DNA of 21,924 nt from a virus (Duplodnaviria; Heunggongvirae; Uroviricota; Caudoviricetes). Shown piece after piece: positions 1 to 21,924 of this stretch (position 1 is its first letter; each line of letters opens with the position of its first letter). The DNA is taken from positions 1 to 21,924 of IMG/VR virus record IMGVR_UViG_2609459845_000023. The stretch is one strand, 5' to 3'. The notes beneath the pieces are model-generated. The model saw only the letters and a list, made by a program, of their open reading frames with translations. It searched no databases and was not told where the DNA came from. The translations under genes and the position numbers were made by a program.

Positions 1-1284
1 TTACTTCTTCGCCTCTGCAACCACTTTACTACCCACGCCGCGGTTATTGTATTCCCACATGCGGTTGTAGTTAGTGTCATTCAGATTGCGCTGTATTTCG
101 TCGTTATCATCTACGCTGCCGGTATTACCCGCAAACGGACGATTAGAGATCACCGCATCGGCCCACGGTTTAGCCGTGTTAAAACCTTCGTTGATGGCGC
201 TATCACGGATCACCACCTGACCGTTGGTATTGGCATCAACATCCAGCGAGCGGCCCAGTTGCGCCACACCATCACCGAAAGCATTGAAACGGCTGTTTAC
301 GGCGAGGAAACCGTAGTAAATGTTGGACAGCGTAGCCGGTGCAAACACATACGCTTCTTGCTGAGTACGTGAGTTCACCACGCGGAATTCGGTGTTATCG
401 AACACCACTGCGCCGCGACCAGAAACGATATCCACATCCCCTTCAATGTAGCTGTTGGTCACCAGCGTACGCGGCTGACGATTTGTTTCCAGACGGTTCT
501 GCACACCGCTGTTGGTGACAAAGAAGGTGTTCTGACGACCGAGAATGTTAACGTTGTTAATCTGTACCTGGTCACCATCAGTACGCAGTGCCACCGCCGG
601 ATGGTTACCTGCATCTACGCTATCGCCCAGCGTGTTTTCGATGGTCAGATTTTGCAGTTGCAGGCCATTGTTTTGTGACCAGAAGACCGCAGAGCAGAGA
701 ACACCGATACTGTCGCTGCGTTTGCTCTGGCAGCTATCGTACATATACCACGCTGGTTTACCTGGCATATATTTGCCGCGCGGGTTGACGTCGTGACGCC
801 AGTCGGCAGGGCTCATGCCACCATCAAGGGAAAGCCCAATCTTCACATCAATCGGTTTTTCACCTGTACCGTACAGAGTAATTCCACCCGGAGCGGCAGG
901 GACATATACCGTTCCCTGATACTCACCAGGCATCACGGCAATATACTGGCGCTTGTTGGTACGCTTGATAATTGCCGCATCTACCGCCGCCTGAATCGTG
1001 GTATGCGTTACACCTTGAGTGCCCGCCGGGCCGACAACAAAGTCAGGTTGCGCAGGCAGGGTAATCGGGGAAGGATTCCACGCTGCAGCACCTGGTGTCA
1101 GGGATGCAAAATAGTGTTGAGCATCGAAATTCTGCGCTTCTTTTGCCGACAGAATCGGGCGAGAAGAGGTACCAGGCGCGGTTTGATCAGAAGGACGTTG
1201 ATCGGGCGGGGTTGAGCTACAGGCGGTCAGCGTCACGCCAAAAGCCAATGCCAGCGCCAGACGGGAAACTGAAAATGTGTTCAC
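1..1284 (-). CDS. ybhC: host outer-membrane lipoprotein YbhC (pectinesterase-fold / acyl-CoA thioesterase family)
   Basis: 427-aa ORF from track; N-terminal lipoprotein signal MNTFSVSRLALALAFGVTLTAC (lipobox LTAC); recognised as E. coli YbhC, the gene flanking attB-lambda on the gal side; GC-normal composition. Confidence 0.85.
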   Translation of the reverse strand: MNTFSVSRLALALAFGVTLTACSSTPPDQRPSDQTAPGTSSRPILSAKEAQNFDAQHYFASLTPGAAAWNPSPITLPAQPDFVVGPAGTQGVTHTTIQAAVDAAIIKRTNKRQYIAVMPGEYQGTVYVPAAPGGITLYGTGEKPIDVKIGLSLDGGMSPADWRHDVNPRGKYMPGKPAWYMYDSCQSKRSDSIGVLCSAVFWSQNNGLQLQNLTIENTLGDSVDAGNHPAVALRTDGDQVQINNVNILGRQNTFFVTNSGVQNRLETNRQPRTLVTNSYIEGDVDIVSGRGAVVFDNTEFRVVNSRTQQEAYVFAPATLSNIYYGFLAVNSRFNAFGDGVAQLGRSLDVDANTNGQVVIRDSAINEGFNTAKPWADAVISNRPFAGNTGSVDDNDEIQRNLNDTNYNRMWEYNNRGVGSKVVAEAKK

Positions 1285-1418: not shown

Positions 1419-2489
1419 TTATTTGATTTCAATTTTGTCCCACTCCCTGCCTCTGTCATCACGATACTGTGATGCCATGGTGTCCGACTTATGCCCGAGA
1501 AGATGTTGAGCAAATTTATCGCTTATCTGCTTCTCATAGAGTCTTGCAGACAAACTGCGCAACTCGTGAAAGGTTGGCGGATCCCCTTCGAAGGAGAGAC
1601 CTGATGCTTTTCGTGCGCGCATAAAATACCTTGATACTGTGCCGGATGAAAGCGGTTCACGACGAGTAGATGCAATTATGGTTTCTCCGCCAAGAATCTT
1701 TTTGCATTTATCAAGTGTTTCCTTCATTGATATCCCGAGAGCATCAACATGCAATGTTGTTGGGATGGCAATTTTTACGCCTGTTTTGCTTTGCTCGACA
1801 TAAAGATATCCATCTACGATATCAGACCACTTCATTTCGCATAAATCACCAACTCGCTGCCCGGTAACAACAGCCAGTTCCATTGCAAGTCTAAGCCAAC
1901 ATGGTGATGATTCTGCTGCTTGATAAATTTTCAGGTATTCGTCAGCCGTAAGTCTTGATCTCCTTACCTCTGATTTTGCAGCGCGAGTGGCTGCGACCGG
2001 GTTTGTTGTTATATGGCCTTCAGCCATAGCCTCTCGGAATGCATCGCTCAGTGTTGATCTGATTAACTTGGCTGATGCCGCCTTTCCCTCGTCTATGTAT
2101 CCATTGAGCATTGCCGCAATTTCTTTTGTGGTGATGTCTTCAAGTGGAGCATCAGGCAGACCCCTCCTTATTGCTTTAATTTTGCTCATGTAATTTATGA
2201 GTGTCTTCTGCTTGATTCCTCTGCTGGCCAGGATTTTTTCGTAGCGATCAAGCCATGAATGTAACGTAACGGAATTATCACTGTTGATTCTCGCTGTCAG
2301 AGGCTTGTGTTTGTGTCCTGAAAATAACTCAATGTTGGCCTGTATAGCTTCAGTGATTGCGATTCGCCTGTCTCGGCCTAATCCAAACTCTTTACCCGTC
2401 CTTGGGTCCCTGTAGCAGTAATATCCATTGTTTCTTATATAAAGGTTAGGGGGTAAATCCCGGCGCTCATGACTTCGCCTTCTTCCCAT
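1419..2489 (-). CDS. int: lambda integrase (tyrosine recombinase)
   Basis: 356-aa ORF; MGRRRSHERRDLPPNLYIRNNGYYCYRDPRTGKEFGLGRD... matches lambda Int essentially full length; 3' end 74 bp from att core as in lambda. Confidence 0.97.
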   Translation of the reverse strand: MGRRRSHERRDLPPNLYIRNNGYYCYRDPRTGKEFGLGRDRRIAITEAIQANIELFSGHKHKPLTARINSDNSVTLHSWLDRYEKILASRGIKQKTLINYMSKIKAIRRGLPDAPLEDITTKEIAAMLNGYIDEGKAASAKLIRSTLSDAFREAMAEGHITTNPVAATRAAKSEVRRSRLTADEYLKIYQAAESSPCWLRLAMELAVVTGQRVGDLCEMKWSDIVDGYLYVEQSKTGVKIAIPTTLHVDALGISMKETLDKCKKILGGETIIASTRREPLSSGTVSRYFMRARKASGLSFEGDPPTFHELRSLSARLYEKQISDKFAQHLLGHKSDTMASQYRDDRGREWDKIEIK

Positions 2490-16538: not shown

Positions 16539-16997
16539 ATGAGTCGGTTAACCGCGATTATCTCCGCTCTGGTTATCTGCATCATCGTCTGCCTGTCGTG
16601 GGCGGTCAATCATTACCGTGATAACGCAATCGCCTACAAAGAGCAGCGCGATAACAAGGCCAGTGAACTGGAGAAGGCGAACGCCACCATCGCTGACATG
16701 CGGAAGCGTCAACGTGATGTAGCAGAACTCGATGCCAGATATACAAAGGAGCTTGCTGATGCTAACGCGACTATCGAAAGTCTCCGTGCTGATGTTTCTG
16801 CTGGTCGTAAGCGCCTGCAAGTCGCCGCCACCTGTGCAAAGTCAACGACCGGAGCCAGCAGCATGGGCGATGGAGAAAGCCCAAGACTTACAGCAGATGC
16901 TGAACTCAATTATTACCGTCTCCGAAGTGGAATCGACAAGATAACCGCGCAGGTTAACTACCTGCAGGAATACATCAGGACGCAATGCCTGAAATAA
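16539..16997 (+). CDS. Rz-like i-spanin (153 aa)
   Basis: internal start of track ORF 16410..16997 at [26 protein letters not shown] (N-terminal TM) followed by coiled-coil-like sequence; SD GGGGTG upstream. Confidence 0.8.
16759..16944 (+). CDS. Rz1-like o-spanin lipoprotein embedded in the +1 frame of Rz (61 aa)
   Basis: [20 protein letters not shown] lipoprotein signal (lipobox VSAC), then Pro-rich [12 protein letters not shown]; SD AAGGA 8 nt upstream; entirely within Rz. Confidence 0.7.
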
Positions 16998-17028
16998 TTT
17001 TTTTGCAAATCACAAAGTCAATTTAATG

Positions 17029-17083
17029 AGCCTCGCGATGCGGGGCTTTTTGCAATAAATGCGTACCGCAACGCATGTTTTTT
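17029..17083 (+). terminator. tandem intrinsic terminators ending the rightward operon
   Basis: hairpin AGCCTCGC-GAT-GCGGGGCT + TTTTT (about 17029..17051), then ATGCGT-ACCGCA-ACGCAT + GTTTTTT (17059..17083). Confidence 0.6.
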
Positions 17084-17198: not shown

Positions 17199-17720
17199 AT
17201 GAATATCGTGCCACTTAATTACAAAGGTGAAATTGTCAGTTTCAACACTGATGGTTGGATCAACGTCACAGGTGTTGCTGAGAGATTTGGAAAACGCATT
17301 GATAACTGGATGCGTTTGGCAGAAACGCTTGAATACGTTCGTGCTTTAGACGAAGCGTTGACCGGGAAAGAATCTCAAATTTTACATCCCTCACAATCGA
17401 GGTATGTAAAAACCAGCAAGGCACGAAAGGACAGGGGTGGTGGTACGTGGCTACATCCAAAACTTTCAGTTGCATTTGCCCGTTGGTGTGATGCTCGTTT
17501 TGCTGTGTGGTGCGACCTGCACATTGATAGTCTGCTTCGCGGTGAACTGACTGAGCAGCAGAAATATGAGCAAGCATGTCGCATTCGCGATGACCGGAAA
17601 TCAAAAGCCAGCAATGGGGCAAGAGAGATGGCTCGCTGGCGATGGGATAAGCCGGTTATTGAAGCAAATGTTGAGTACTGGCGCGAGCAACTGCAGTTGA
17701 CTCTCGATATCGCGTGCTGA
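17199..17720 (+). CDS. KilA-N domain protein (173 aa)
   Basis: track ORF; N-terminal pattern DGWINVTGVAERFGKRIDNWMRLAETLEYVRALDEAL fits the KilA-N / APSES-type DNA-binding signature; SD GGTAGG upstream. Confidence 0.65.
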   Translation: MNIVPLNYKGEIVSFNTDGWINVTGVAERFGKRIDNWMRLAETLEYVRALDEALTGKESQILHPSQSRYVKTSKARKDRGGGTWLHPKLSVAFARWCDARFAVWCDLHIDSLLRGELTEQQKYEQACRIRDDRKSKASNGAREMARWRWDKPVIEANVEYWREQLQLTLDIAC

Positions 17721-18177
17721 TGGCAAACGCAAAACTGCGTTATCGGAAAAATCAAAGCATTACGAGAACTGAGCAACGGCTATCCATTACAAAGCCCATC
17801 TACGGGTGGGCTTGATAATGAAACCGGAATTTATTCTTGGCAACCAGTTACGGCAGTACCACAAAACAACCCAAGCCAGTAAGTGGGGAAATAACACTGG
17901 CAGCCACTGAAAGATGAACCTCCTGCCTTATGGCAAAAAAGATTCTTTGTTGTGGCGGACTGATGGAAAGACATCGGTTATTGCAGAGGCCATTCAATGA
18001 GTGGTCTCGACAATGGCTTATACCCTGCACGGGATAACTTAACTGATATCCCTTTTAACGGATAAACGGAGCCAACAATGGCAGAGCTCACAGACAAACA
18101 AGAGCTGTTTGCCCATCCGGATGATGTGTATGTCGGAGAGTGTGTGATTTATACCGGCTACCGGGCAAGTTCCGGAT

Positions 18178-18513
18178 ATGTCATCCTTTACCTATACAAC
18201 AACCGGGTCTGGTGTGGTTATTCGCCTTCCTGGCAATATGATCATCCAGATGGATGTAGGTACAACGGACAGTAACGGATTTTATAATGTGAATATGGGT
18301 GTGGCGATGAGCTCATACCAGGTATTTGCAGTAGAAGGCCATGTCTCTGGATGGACAGCCTCCGGCGGTATCTATCAACTCTTAACCGTGTATGGTGCCG
18401 AAAAGGTTAACGCAGGGAGCTTTAATGTTCGTTCTGCAACCTGGAGTTCGTCCGACCACAACTTTACTGCGCAGCCAACAGTTTTTAACTGGATTGCTAT
18501 CGGGAGAGCGTAA
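18178..18513 (+). CDS. probable 3' remnant of a side tail-fibre gene (C-terminal domain, 111 aa)
   Basis: track ORF; stop overlaps the tfa start (TAATG) as in stf-tfa pairs; the frame is open from about 18148; overlapping ORF 18078..18275 in another frame suggests a 5' truncation or frameshift. Confidence 0.45.
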   Translation: MSSFTYTTTGSGVVIRLPGNMIIQMDVGTTDSNGFYNVNMGVAMSSYQVFAVEGHVSGWTASGGIYQLLTVYGAEKVNAGSFNVRSATWSSSDHNFTAQPTVFNWIAIGRA

Positions 18514-18977
18514 TGTCTGATTCAGATTTTTTATATAGTGCCAAAAGCAACGCTTTTGTTTTCAAGGAAAGCTCTCTGTTAAAGACGGACGAATACAGTG
18601 ATGCTGTGCCGGTTGATATGGGTGTTTTCGCCGAATTTTACCCAACAGTTAAAGACGGCATGCGAAGGGTTGCAGGGCCAGACGGCATGCCTGCGTGGGA
18701 AAAAATTCCCGAGCCAACTAAAGAAGAACTGTTCGCGCTTAAACTGGCACAGGCCGAGTCAAAGAGAGATGCGTTAATCTCTGCGGCTAACGCATATATA
18801 AGCAGCGAACACTGGCCTTCTAAGCTCATTCTGGAGATCATCACCGATGAAGAGAAGGCGACCTTTAAAGAGTGGCTTGCTCATATCGATGCCTTGAAGA
18901 AAATGAAGTTTAATGATGAAGCAGCGATATTAAGTGACAGCCTTGAATGGCCGCCACGTCCTGCTACCGCGTCGTAA
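18513..18977 (+). CDS. tfa: tail-fibre assembly protein (Tfa family)
   Basis: 154-aa ORF; C-terminal region (...EELFALKLAQAESKRDALISAANAYISSEHW...EEKATFKEWLAHIDAL...LEWPPRP) resembles the conserved Tfa C-terminal domain ending in an EWP..P motif. Confidence 0.75.
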   Translation: MSDSDFLYSAKSNAFVFKESSLLKTDEYSDAVPVDMGVFAEFYPTVKDGMRRVAGPDGMPAWEKIPEPTKEELFALKLAQAESKRDALISAANAYISSEHWPSKLILEIITDEEKATFKEWLAHIDALKKMKFNDEAAILSDSLEWPPRPATAS

Positions 18978-20025
18978 TCTCCTGGCGTTTCAGCGCCGAA
19001 CGGGCCAGACGGATAAACGGTTTTTCAATTATCCGGTTAGCTGCGAATGCCATCATCAGAGAAGCAACAAGCATGCAGGGGACAAGGACGCCCCAGTGCT
19101 TATACTCCCCAATCGGAATAAATTTCTGTACCATCTGCATTACCAGCCAATGACAGAGATAAATGCTATATGTCAGGTCGCCAAGAATTGATAATGCTTT
19201 TATCTCTCCCGCCTTTGATTTATCCAGCATCAAAACGCCCACAAAAAATATTGCAGCAAAAAAGAACATTCCTTCTATACCGCTGGTATGGTCTGAGAAT
19301 GTGAAGAAAAAATAGAAAAATAAAGCCGATGCGAATATTGCTATAGTAATAGCAGTTAAGTTAGGAAGAATTAATTTAAACCTTTCAAATATCATTCCAG
19401 ACATAATCCCAAACGCAAACTCATAAAACATCGTTGAGCCTGCCAGCCTGATTAGACCATAAAACGGCGAGTCAGCAGGAGGGATAGCGGTGACTGTGCT
19501 GTTAAACGACAACCCTCCATTAAACGCAACCTGTAGCACTGCCGGGATTGCAATCAGCAGCGCGATACACAATGAACCTCGATACCGGGTCGTTATTGCA
19601 GCGCACATACAGAAAATAGCGTAGAACGATATTTCATAAGTCAATGTCCACGCGGGCGGTAGCAGATTAAATCCAAACGCCGGAGCGGGTAGTGTGTAAT
19701 CGTTGTGCAGAACCAGAAAACCCCTGGATAATTGTGTGGCAGGCGCAGGTTGCAATAACAACGAAACCAGTAACACAACAAAAAATAGCGGGTATATTCT
19801 GGCGAATCGTTTAACAATAAATACCGTTGGTCTGCATTCCTCAGGATTTATTGTTGACCAATAAATAATAAATCCAGAGATAATGAAAAAAATATCAACG
19901 CCCACCATGCCATTTGCAAATAAATTAGCAAACCAGCGCGGAGTAAAAAAAGAAAAATGGTACAGCACCACAAGTAGCGCTGCTATTCCACGAAGATACT
20001 GGACGGAAAATATTTTATTGTTCAT
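18964..20025 (-). CDS. acyltransferase-3 family integral membrane protein (O-acetyltransferase-like)
   Basis: track ORF 18964..20037 (TTG); likely ATG start at 20025 (MNNKIFSVQYLRGIAALLVVLYHF...); multiple hydrophobic helices; AT-rich; converges on tfa with a 14-nt overlap. Confidence 0.8.
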   Translation of the reverse strand: MNNKIFSVQYLRGIAALLVVLYHFSFFTPRWFANLFANGMVGVDIFFIISGFIIYWSTINPEECRPTVFIVKRFARIYPLFFVVLLVSLLLQPAPATQLSRGFLVLHNDYTLPAPAFGFNLLPPAWTLTYEISFYAIFCMCAAITTRYRGSLCIALLIAIPAVLQVAFNGGLSFNSTVTAIPPADSPFYGLIRLAGSTMFYEFAFGIMSGMIFERFKLILPNLTAITIAIFASALFFYFFFTFSDHTSGIEGMFFFAAIFFVGVLMLDKSKAGEIKALSILGDLTYSIYLCHWLVMQMVQKFIPIGEYKHWGVLVPCMLVASLMMAFAANRIIEKPFIRLARSALKRQEITTR

Positions 20026-20059
20026 TATGTGGCCCAATTTTCATTGAGCCACAATTATA

Positions 20060-21346
20060 TCAGAAAACCCCCTCAACCCACAACTGGCCATCAAAGCACA
20101 CCATTCTAAACAGACGTGATGCGGCGTTCCCGCCAGCCGCCACTACCAAATCAGCATCAAATATCGCCATGCCATTAGCCGGGTGGTACAGGTCGCCGAC
20201 AGCCTGTTTAAGCGTCAGATCACCAGCTCCCGGCGTTGCGCTTCGGACCATCAGATAAAACGAACTCCCGTCCGGGTAAACAGTTGGCAGCGCATTGATT
20301 GTCACGTTACCGGATAACCCCTCGGTGAAATAACAATGTCCAGTTTCAGGCCACCAGATTAAATCAGTAGCGTTGATATTGCTCGTTCCCGCTACATCAA
20401 TGAGCTTGTGGATTTTCCCTGGCTGTAAATCCCCGGAGTTTGCACAGAACAGCGCCGACAGTTGCTGCAATGCGGTTTCACTATCGCGCCAGTTCAGCAC
20501 ATTTGTAATAGTCCCGCGCTTAATTCTGCCGTCAAACAAAACGGGGCGCTCTGGCGTGAACGTCACGAAGTCTTTCGTGTCTACAAAATAAGTCCATTTT
20601 TTTGTGTCGAAAAAATCCGCATAGATTCTGATCGTGCCGTCCGGCAAATAAACCAGCGCCGGGCCTTCCGCCGCCTGAGTAAACGGAATTACTGATAATT
20701 TCGTGAACTGTCCTGAGAAACAATTTGAACAATACACCTCAATTTTTTTGGTGATTTCATCTTTTATTGTCAGGTAATACGTCTGGAATATTCTGGAAAA
20801 AACAGAATCAATCATGTTTTTTGGTTCGATATTTACCGCAACCGGATCGTAAAACTCCAGTCTCTCAACATCAGAACAGACAGAATAGAATGTTTTAAAA
20901 CTTTTGACATTTACACCTTTACTGTCAGTCTGATCGTTGTAATAACGCAGGCTGACTATCAGGAACAGATTTTCGTCATCAACAAACCATTCAGGAGCCC
21001 ACACGTCAGTGGTCACCAGATCTGAACCCGGTAATCGTTTCCCACAGACTGGCGTATCGCCAAGCTTAATTCGTACCAGTTCCCACACGGTTAAATCACG
21101 TGAGCGCCAGCAATCGACGTCATAAACGTTTTCTGTATATCCTGATACGGCTATTAACCACCAACCGTTGTGATAAATAATTGATGGGTCTCTCCCTAAA
21201 ACTTCTCCAGTTCCACCAATAGCCCAAAGGAATTGAGCCTTTATTTTTTCGAATCGTTCTCCATCATAAGATAATGCCAGGTTTACTTTTGAGCTTTGGT
21301 CACTTTCAAAAAAAGAACCAACAAACAGCGCGGAATTATTTTTCAC
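20060..21346 (-). CDS. hypothetical protein (428 aa), upstream partner of the acyltransferase
   Basis: track ORF; only possible start is GTG at 21346 (in-frame TAA two codons upstream) with weak SD; no signal peptide; family not recognised. Confidence 0.65.
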   Translation of the reverse strand: MKNNSALFVGSFFESDQSSKVNLALSYDGERFEKIKAQFLWAIGGTGEVLGRDPSIIYHNGWWLIAVSGYTENVYDVDCWRSRDLTVWELVRIKLGDTPVCGKRLPGSDLVTTDVWAPEWFVDDENLFLIVSLRYYNDQTDSKGVNVKSFKTFYSVCSDVERLEFYDPVAVNIEPKNMIDSVFSRIFQTYYLTIKDEITKKIEVYCSNCFSGQFTKLSVIPFTQAAEGPALVYLPDGTIRIYADFFDTKKWTYFVDTKDFVTFTPERPVLFDGRIKRGTITNVLNWRDSETALQQLSALFCANSGDLQPGKIHKLIDVAGTSNINATDLIWWPETGHCYFTEGLSGNVTINALPTVYPDGSSFYLMVRSATPGAGDLTLKQAVGDLYHPANGMAIFDADLVVAAGGNAASRLFRMVCFDGQLWVEGVF

Positions 21347-21436
21347 GATGATTTACCGATTGGATATTTATATTTAAAGACAATTTAAATTTATAATAAA
21401 TGTCCCAAAATTGCTCACTATTTGGTTATGGGAAAT

Positions 21437-21480
21437 AACGATCAAAATCTTCAAATCGATCGGTTGCAACGATCAAAATC
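21437..21480. repeat. 13-bp direct repeat AACGATCAAAATC x2 (31-bp spacing) with three GATC sites
   Basis: read directly at 21437..21449 and 21468..21480; GATC at about 21440, 21458 and 21471; lies in the divergent intergenic region. Confidence 0.6.
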
Positions 21481-21490
21481 CATGCATTGG

Positions 21491-21510
21491 TACTGTATGT
21501 ACATACAGTG
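21491..21510 (+). promoter_or_regulatory. LexA operator (SOS box) upstream of the umuD-like gene
   Basis: TACTGTATGTACATACAGTG contains a perfect 16-bp palindrome CTGTATGTACATACAG fitting CTGT-N8-ACAG; 16 bp upstream of the start codon. Confidence 0.8.
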
Positions 21511-21525
21511 CCAATGAGGTGAGTT

Positions 21526-21924
21526 ATGGTTGCCATGTCACAGTTTCCCAGCCCTGCTGCTGATTACCACGAGGATGCGATCTCACTCGACAAGGAGTTG
21601 ATACGAAAACCAGCGGCGACATTCTTCATCCGTTACGCTGCTACATCATGGCGGGAAGGAATCAAGAGAGGTGCTCTGCTGGTCATGGACACATCGCTGA
21701 CTCCGGTAGACGGAAGCCTGGTGATTTGTCATCTGAATGACCAGATACGGCTGTTGCGTCTCAGGCTGCTGCCAAAGGTGCACCTGGAAGAACTGGACCA
21801 CGCTGATAAAAAGACATGGATAACTGACGACGATTGTGAGGAACGAGTCGTAGTGAAGGGGGTGGTGACGTACATCATCAATGACGCGCGGACTGGTGAG
21901 TTTGATGACTACCCGCTGAAGTGA
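21526..21924 (+). CDS. UmuD'-like protein (LexA/UmuD S24 family), 132 aa
   Basis: track ORF; FPSPAADY motif and overall alignment to the E. coli UmuD C-terminal domain; SD GAGGTGAG upstream; begins near the position of the UmuD Cys24-Gly25 cleavage site. Confidence 0.7.
   Translation: MVAMSQFPSPAADYHEDAISLDKELIRKPAATFFIRYAATSWREGIKRGALLVMDTSLTPVDGSLVICHLNDQIRLLRLRLLPKVHLEELDHADKKTWITDDDCEERVVVKGVVTYIINDARTGEFDDYPLK

Follow-up and report, generated by a model that had tools for sequence, protein, structure and literature searches.

A HumD-family gene behind a LexA box at the right end of a hybrid prophage encodes an already truncated UmuD'-like protein whose branch has lost the self-cleavage lysine

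Introduction

The accessory subunit of Pol V in Escherichia coli is UmuD/UmuD' (solved structures 1umu, 1ay9, 1i4v, and 8gmt), which has a Cys24-Gly25 self-cleavage site and a catalytic dyad of Ser60 and Lys97. The temperate phage P1 encodes a UmuD' homolog, HumD, which has reportedly been known since 1999; it works with the host UmuC and has no umuC of its own. P1 HumD has been described as an already activated, shorter UmuD (PMC7092418), and humD is a LexA-regulated SOS gene (PMC9603915). The P1 GenBank record states that humD "functionally complements E. coli UmuD'" and annotates the box upstream of the gene as a LexA binding site.

Here we describe the last open reading frame of the window, by which we mean the whole stretch of tailed-phage DNA that was analysed (21,924 nt). 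The first-pass annotation had read it as a UmuD'-like protein under SOS control that is carried by a prophage, is made in already truncated form, and lacks the catalytic lysine. This reading is borne out, and the same description defines the known HumD family. Judged by its profile matches and alignments, the gene is an ordinary member of that family and not a new kind of protein, the sole new detail being that its branch has lost a self-cleavage lysine that is no longer needed.

The gene, its start, and its family

The frame lies on the plus strand, and its end coincides with the edge of the window (Table 1). The sequence GAGGTGA, which includes the Shine-Dalgarno motif, is kept upstream of humD in P1 and in the Phytobacter allele (P0001). 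Because an in-frame TGA lies just upstream of the ATG, no upstream start is able to add a cleavable N-terminal arm.

Table 1. Features of the window discussed in the text.
Feature	Position	Strand	Remark
ybhC-like gene	1-1284	-	left end of window
lambda int	1419-2489	-	starts lambda/434-like early region
KilA-N gene	17199-17720		left of joint
65-aa fusion ORF	18078-18275		deletion joint
Acyl_transf_3 family acyltransferase	18964-20037	-	possible O-antigen or surface-polysaccharide modifier
428-aa protein	20060-21346	-	weak GH43/GH32 and PHROG "tail protein" similarity
LexA (SOS) box TACTGTATGTACATACAGTG	21491..21510	.	18-bp perfect palindrome, CTGT...ACAG core; ends about 16-17 nt before ATG
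Shine-Dalgarno GAGGTG	21516..21521	+	4 nt before ATG; read from sequence
In-frame TGA	21520..21522	+	two codons upstream of ATG; excludes N-terminal arm
humD-family gene	21526..21924	+	predicted pre-truncated UmuD'-like S24-fold protein, 132 aa, stop included; NF051876, PF00717, PHROG 811
Ser5-Gln6	21538..21543	+	place of UmuD Cys24-Gly25 self-cleavage site, no scissile site; HMMER to UmuD, MAFFT
Thr40-Ser41	21643..21648	+	candidates for Ser60 nucleophile place; HMMER: Ser41, MAFFT: Thr40
Leu77-Arg78	21754..21759	+	places of UmuD Lys97-Lys98, general base lost; HMMER, MAFFT
Last 66 nt of humD	21859-21924	+	conserved with phages HK140, HK544, and mEp234
C-terminal tail INDARTGEFDDYPLK	21877..21921	+	HumD-specific, absent from UmuD; underlying DNA part of conserved att-proximal segment

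On the NCBIfam equivalog NF051876 ("HumD family translesion DNA polymerase"), whose cut-off is 120, the protein scores 171.1 bits, and the match spans positions 3-128 of the 129 in the profile. Further matches are to Pfam PF00717 (Peptidase_S24; 27.7 bits, cut-off 23.3) and PHROG 811 ("UmuD-like protein"; 2e-40). Identity is 54-57% with HumD of P1, P7, D6, and other P1-like phages, and 49-54% with the UmuD-like genes of N15, phiKO2, HK140, and HK639. The best solved-structure matches found with HMMER are UmuD/UmuD' (8gmt, 1umu, and 1i4v; E about 3e-15). An AlphaFold model that used 48 homologs (pLDDT 82.5) is closest to UmuD' 1umu_A (TM 0.84 by target length, rmsd 2.4 Å), and its top structural matches are UmuD' 1umu, 1ay9, and 8gmt (TM 0.82-0.85 by target length).

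Like P1 HumD, to which it is about 55% identical, the window protein has UmuD' length with no arm to cleave, FPSPAADY near its N-terminus, and an NDARxGEFDD tail at its C-terminus; both genes belong to temperate phages, follow a LexA box that lies about 20 nt from the ATG, and lack an adjacent umuC. Unlike the window protein, which has Thr-Ser and Leu at the dyad positions, P1 HumD keeps Ser (ADSH) and Lys (RIKRY), and it starts with MG where the window protein has MVAMSQ, that is, four extra N-terminal residues. In P1, humD neighbours phd-doc on a prophage that is a plasmid, whereas the window gene occupies the att-proximal end of a lambdoid prophage that is integrated. E. coli UmuD is also LexA-regulated and shares the S24 beta-fold (about 34% identity over residues 25-136), but the window protein lacks residues 1-24 and the Cys-Gly site, has Leu for Lys97, carries a one-residue deletion in the Ser60 loop, extends by 12-15 acidic residues at the C-terminus, and is not in an operon with umuC. 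HK140 gp28, N15 gp26, phiKO2 gp23, and the homologs of HK639 and BTP1 are HumD-family proteins at 49-54% identity; in HK140, as in the window prophage, humD is the last gene before attP/int, but gp28 has Lys at the Lys97 column and Thr at the Ser60 column.

Cleavage site and catalytic dyad

The start had been placed, by eye, a few residues before the position of the Cys24-Gly25 site. HMMER alignment to the solved structures pairs UmuD Gly25 with Gln6 and Phe26 with Phe7, and HMMER and MAFFT agree that Ser5-Gln6 occupies the site with four residues before it, as proposed. An Ala/Cys-Gly scissile bond with a preceding N-terminal segment is absent from the window protein in both alignments. Both programs likewise confirm the Leu/Arg that had been read at the catalytic lysine, pairing Lys97 with Leu77 (codon 21754-21756) and Lys98 with Arg78. 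Neither an N-terminal extension from an upstream start nor a lysine at the catalytic place was found when we looked for them, given the in-frame TGA and the position of Leu77 in the two alignments.

The first-pass annotation had further claimed that Ser60 is retained, a point that depends on the alignment. HMMER pairs Ser60 with Ser41 (ATSW on GDSM); the MAFFT family alignment, anchored on the "ADSH" of P1 HumD, pairs Thr40 with Ser60 and with the P1 HumD Ser. The Ser60 equivalent is therefore ambiguous, Ser41 or Thr40, because a one-residue deletion common to all HumD-type proteins sits exactly at this place.

The loss of the lysine extends to close relatives. The Lys97 column holds Leu in the window protein and in homologs P0001-P0019, which are 60-89% identical to it, Met in P0024, and Lys in P1, HK140, and P0020-P0023. 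In the window protein, P0001-P0019, and P0024, the Leu or Met stands within a conserved R-x-L-R-L-R motif. From these alignments we conclude that the loss is real and common to the whole subclade of the window protein.

We surveyed the family more widely by an exhaustive search of 50%-identity representatives, examining the best 150 of 2,067 matches at E <= 1e-3. Short forms were defined as having no more than 6 residues ahead of the Gly25 column (n = 47), and long forms as UmuD-like proteins with an A/C-G site (n = 60). Lys occupies the Lys97 column in 17 of the 47 short forms versus 50 of the 60 long forms in this best-150 sample; the remaining short forms have Arg (18) or V, L, C, Q, W, or F. 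Long forms mostly keep xS at positions 59-60 (46/60), and the Ser60 column of the short forms (n = 47) is highly variable, with S, T, E, P, Q, A, H, N, and others. As far as the alignment can be read, loss of the cleavable arm has repeatedly been followed by decay of the catalytic dyad. Such decay is expected because the dyad serves activation and not UmuD' function; it is reportedly needed for cleavage only.

These columns also bear on whether some S24-type protease activity might persist, through Thr40 or Ser41 together with another base such as Arg78, and cleave the protein itself or, in trans, host UmuD or LexA. Ser or Thr is kept near the nucleophile place across the clade (TSW or ESR), and Arg is frequent at or beside the Lys97 column in short forms. 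We nevertheless regard residual proteolysis as very improbable: the window protein has Leu and not Arg at the Lys97 column, it offers neither an Ala/Cys-Gly site nor an arm to cleave, and the high variability of the nucleophile column in short forms points to relaxed constraint rather than to an alternative active site.

LexA box and transcription

A LexA box directly above the gene had been proposed and is indeed present as a consensus match (Table 1). The sequence TACTGTATGTACATACAGT at 21491-21509 is the only CTGT-N8-ACAG in the 21.9-kb window, and the box exactly matches a pattern of 15 specified bases, TACTGTAT-N4-ATACAGT, which occurred in none of 100 shuffles. LexA boxes are found upstream of seven independent HumD-family members, with a similar spacing from the ATG in P0001 (18 nt) and P1 (about 20-21 nt).

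In P0012, P0013, P0014, and HK140, the LexA box lies about 260 nt upstream of humD, ahead of a co-oriented 79-aa ORF. This arrangement of a box, an ORF of 79-83 aa, and humD, shared by many relatives, looks like a two-gene SOS operon. The small ORF (PHROG 3893) has a stop that overlaps the start of humD (L013 3762-4001, L014, L016, and L017; HK140, L010 2756-2995), and in HK140 a divergently oriented dinI is present as well. The window differs from HK140 in having no PHROG 3893 ORF between the box and humD.

The upstream neighbour of humD is encoded on the other strand across a 179-bp spacer, so humD needs its own promoter within this spacer, where we infer that it lies. A simple scan of 21200-21924 returned no sigma-70 consensus promoter at its thresholds; by eye, TACAGT inside the LexA box is a possible -10, with no convincing -35. 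We found no intrinsic terminator after humD, and the 86-nt prophage segment past the stop folds like its shuffles (z = -0.44).

Genomic context

The identical protein is frequent in draft E. coli assemblies (80 collection blocks). In a megablast search of phages, plasmids, and 5,426 complete E. coli genomes, the last 66 nt alone were matched, and the gene itself was absent from the complete E. coli genomes. Eight contigs that are 99.4-99.97% identical over the last 3.77 kb continue 3' of humD with dacD-sbmC-yeeA-yeeX, and the flanking dacD-side genes are 98.9% identical to E. coli. Homology to K-12 begins 86 nt past the humD stop, 48 nt inside sbcB, which makes humD the final gene of a prophage inserted into sbcB. 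The gene for exonuclease I, sbcB, is thereby interrupted 48 nt into its coding sequence (L001 10400-10486; K-12, L022).

The window as a whole is a hybrid, defective prophage. The ybhC-like gene and lambda int open a lambda/434-like early region that is 97-98% identical up to about 16808-17051, and after the KilA-N gene a joint at about 18152 links this lambda-like part to the last 3.77 kb of another prophage that ends in sbcB beside dacD. The joint, visible as a fusion ORF, recurs in at least 20 contigs; the four joint-bearing contigs listed again have dacD-sbmC-yeeA-yeeX downstream, making 12/12 contigs listed overall. The flank on the left corresponds to the attB side of lambda, and that on the right, known from sister contigs, consists of dacD in the opposite orientation to K-12. 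Set against the order and orientation of genes in K-12, this layout suggests a large rearrangement, by inversion or recombination, involving two prophages some 1.3 Mb distant from each other.

The acyltransferase gene and the gene for the 428-aa protein sit as cargo between a tail-fibre assembly gene and humD; the latter diverges from humD across the LexA-box spacer, like lxr in P1. The 428-aa protein was also considered as a hidden UmuC, which we rejected, its matches being the weak ones to GH43/GH32 and PHROG "tail protein". The large window ORFs that were checked gave ybhC-like and GH43-like Pfam matches and no polymerase.

The first-pass annotation had named the lack of a downstream polymerase partner as a finding that would speak against its reading. 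The gene that follows is dacD, with no umuC, and no umuC or other Y-family polymerase gene was present in the 4-10 kb flanks around humD in loci L001-L008 and L011-L021. This absence does not refute the UmuD' reading, because HumD is normally without a cognate umuC. Similarly, humD of P0001, P0012, P0013, and P0014 is the last cargo gene after tailspike or tail-fibre genes, adjoins the integrase or host DNA, and has no umuC. Gene order thus marks humD as a putative cargo gene of the lysogenic-conversion type, placed at the extreme right end of the prophage next to attR and without a polymerase gene of its own.

Conservation of the gene and of its 3' end

The last 66 nt of humD are 84-92% identical to HK140, HK544, mEp234, and 242 E. 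coli chromosomes, with HK140 (L010 3319-3384) at 92%, and the remainder of the gene is without a match at the DNA level. The attP annotation of HK140 overlaps the end of its humD, and the 66 nt appear to belong to the attP arm of sbcB-integrating phages. Taken together, the overlap and the conservation imply that the terminal residues, YPLK versus CPVM, track the integration module.

Such an overlap could mean that the frame is a non-functional passenger, persisting because its 3' end covers DNA needed as an attachment-site arm. The HK140 annotation and the retention of the last 66 nt at the DNA level, in otherwise dissimilar humD genes of same-site phages, fit this explanation. We consider it extremely improbable, however, because the gene is under purifying selection along its full length (dN/dS about 0.08), the LexA box and Shine-Dalgarno sequence are conserved, and the family also occurs in the non-integrating plasmid prophages P1, N15, and phiKO2.

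The comparison of the window gene with the Phytobacter allele gives dN/dS = 0.077 at a dS of about 1.07, and two P0012 alleles encode the same protein although 42% of their synonymous sites differ. By these substitution patterns the Lys-less subclade is under strong purifying selection, which indicates that the Lys-less protein is functional and not the product of a decaying pseudogene.

The C-terminal tail

HumD-type proteins end in a tail with the consensus (I/V)NDARxGEFDDxPxx (alignment columns for residues 117-132), in which N119, D120, A121, G124, E125, F126, D127, and D128 are at least 90% conserved in the family alignment. Among the representatives surveyed, 17 of 47 short forms carry it, versus 1 of 60 long forms. 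The pLDDT of the model is low here, and the tail is probably disordered. In sequence this acidic tail resembles the C-terminal tip of SSB, DFDDDIPF, which is likewise acidic.

The tail is one of several features that would suit a decoy or modulator, a Lys-less HumD that has ceased to activate UmuC and instead titrates UmuC, UmuD, RecA filaments, or another SOS partner and thereby damps host mutagenesis or tunes prophage induction. A conserved, probably disordered acidic extension that UmuD lacks suggests an extra partner, the dyad and the N-terminal residues (MVAMSQ vs MG) set the clade apart from P1 HumD, and phage dinI, a modulator of RecA filaments, adjoins humD in some relatives. Yet both the tail and the FPSPAADY arm are also present in P1 HumD, which complements UmuD', and loss of the dyad does not imply loss of the cofactor role, because by established knowledge the dyad is needed for cleavage alone. 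Strong purifying selection is compatible with either role. We judge a decoy to be unlikely, and by analogy the P1 precedent favours a shortcut to translesion synthesis over a decoy.

A more specific idea is that the Lys-less subclade, recognisable by TSWREGIK, RLLRLRL, an MxxMSQ N-terminus, and the tail NDARTGEFDD, has been repurposed, with the tail serving as a short linear motif through which the protein recruits or blocks some other factor of replication or of the SOS response, besides or instead of activating UmuC. We think this quite unlikely. If it were true, the window protein would be a phage-encoded modulator of the SOS response or of replication and, more generally, pre-truncated UmuD homologs would systematically swap the N-terminal arm and the dyad for a C-terminal tail.

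Proposed function

The reading that we hold to be probable, largely by analogy with P1, is that the gene encodes an SOS-induced surrogate of UmuD', of the HumD type, that pairs with host UmuC. From the sequence and its conservation, host LexA bound to the box upstream of the ATG would keep humD off in the lysogen, and DNA damage would lead to RecA-mediated cleavage of LexA and to transcription of humD. The product, already at UmuD' length, is predicted to fold like UmuD' and presumably dimerises. The analogy with P1 HumD, which is about 55% identical and keeps the dyad, suggests that the product may then bind RecA filaments and the UmuC of the host, and a Pol V-like translesion polymerase could form without the slow RecA-dependent cleavage of UmuD to UmuD'. 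With no arm to remove, the Ser-Lys dyad would be dispensable and would have decayed in the clade (Lys97 to Leu77, Ser60 probably to Thr40). The functional data in this comparison belong to P1 HumD, which keeps Ser and Lys, and the window protein is Lys-less.

Significance

For specialists the gene raises no new question, and its comparative contribution is modest: a subclade without the lysine and, across the family, an association of truncation with loss of the dyad. These provide a case of relaxed constraint, in which the Ser-Lys dyad decays after loss of the arm and the remaining protein stays strongly selected, and the decay backs the established view that the dyad is for activation only and not for UmuD' function. 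The practical value lies in correct annotation, as a putative HumD-type, SOS-inducible Pol V cofactor that is prophage cargo in E. coli. As such, humD could give lysogens earlier translesion synthesis, and hence mutagenesis, after DNA damage.
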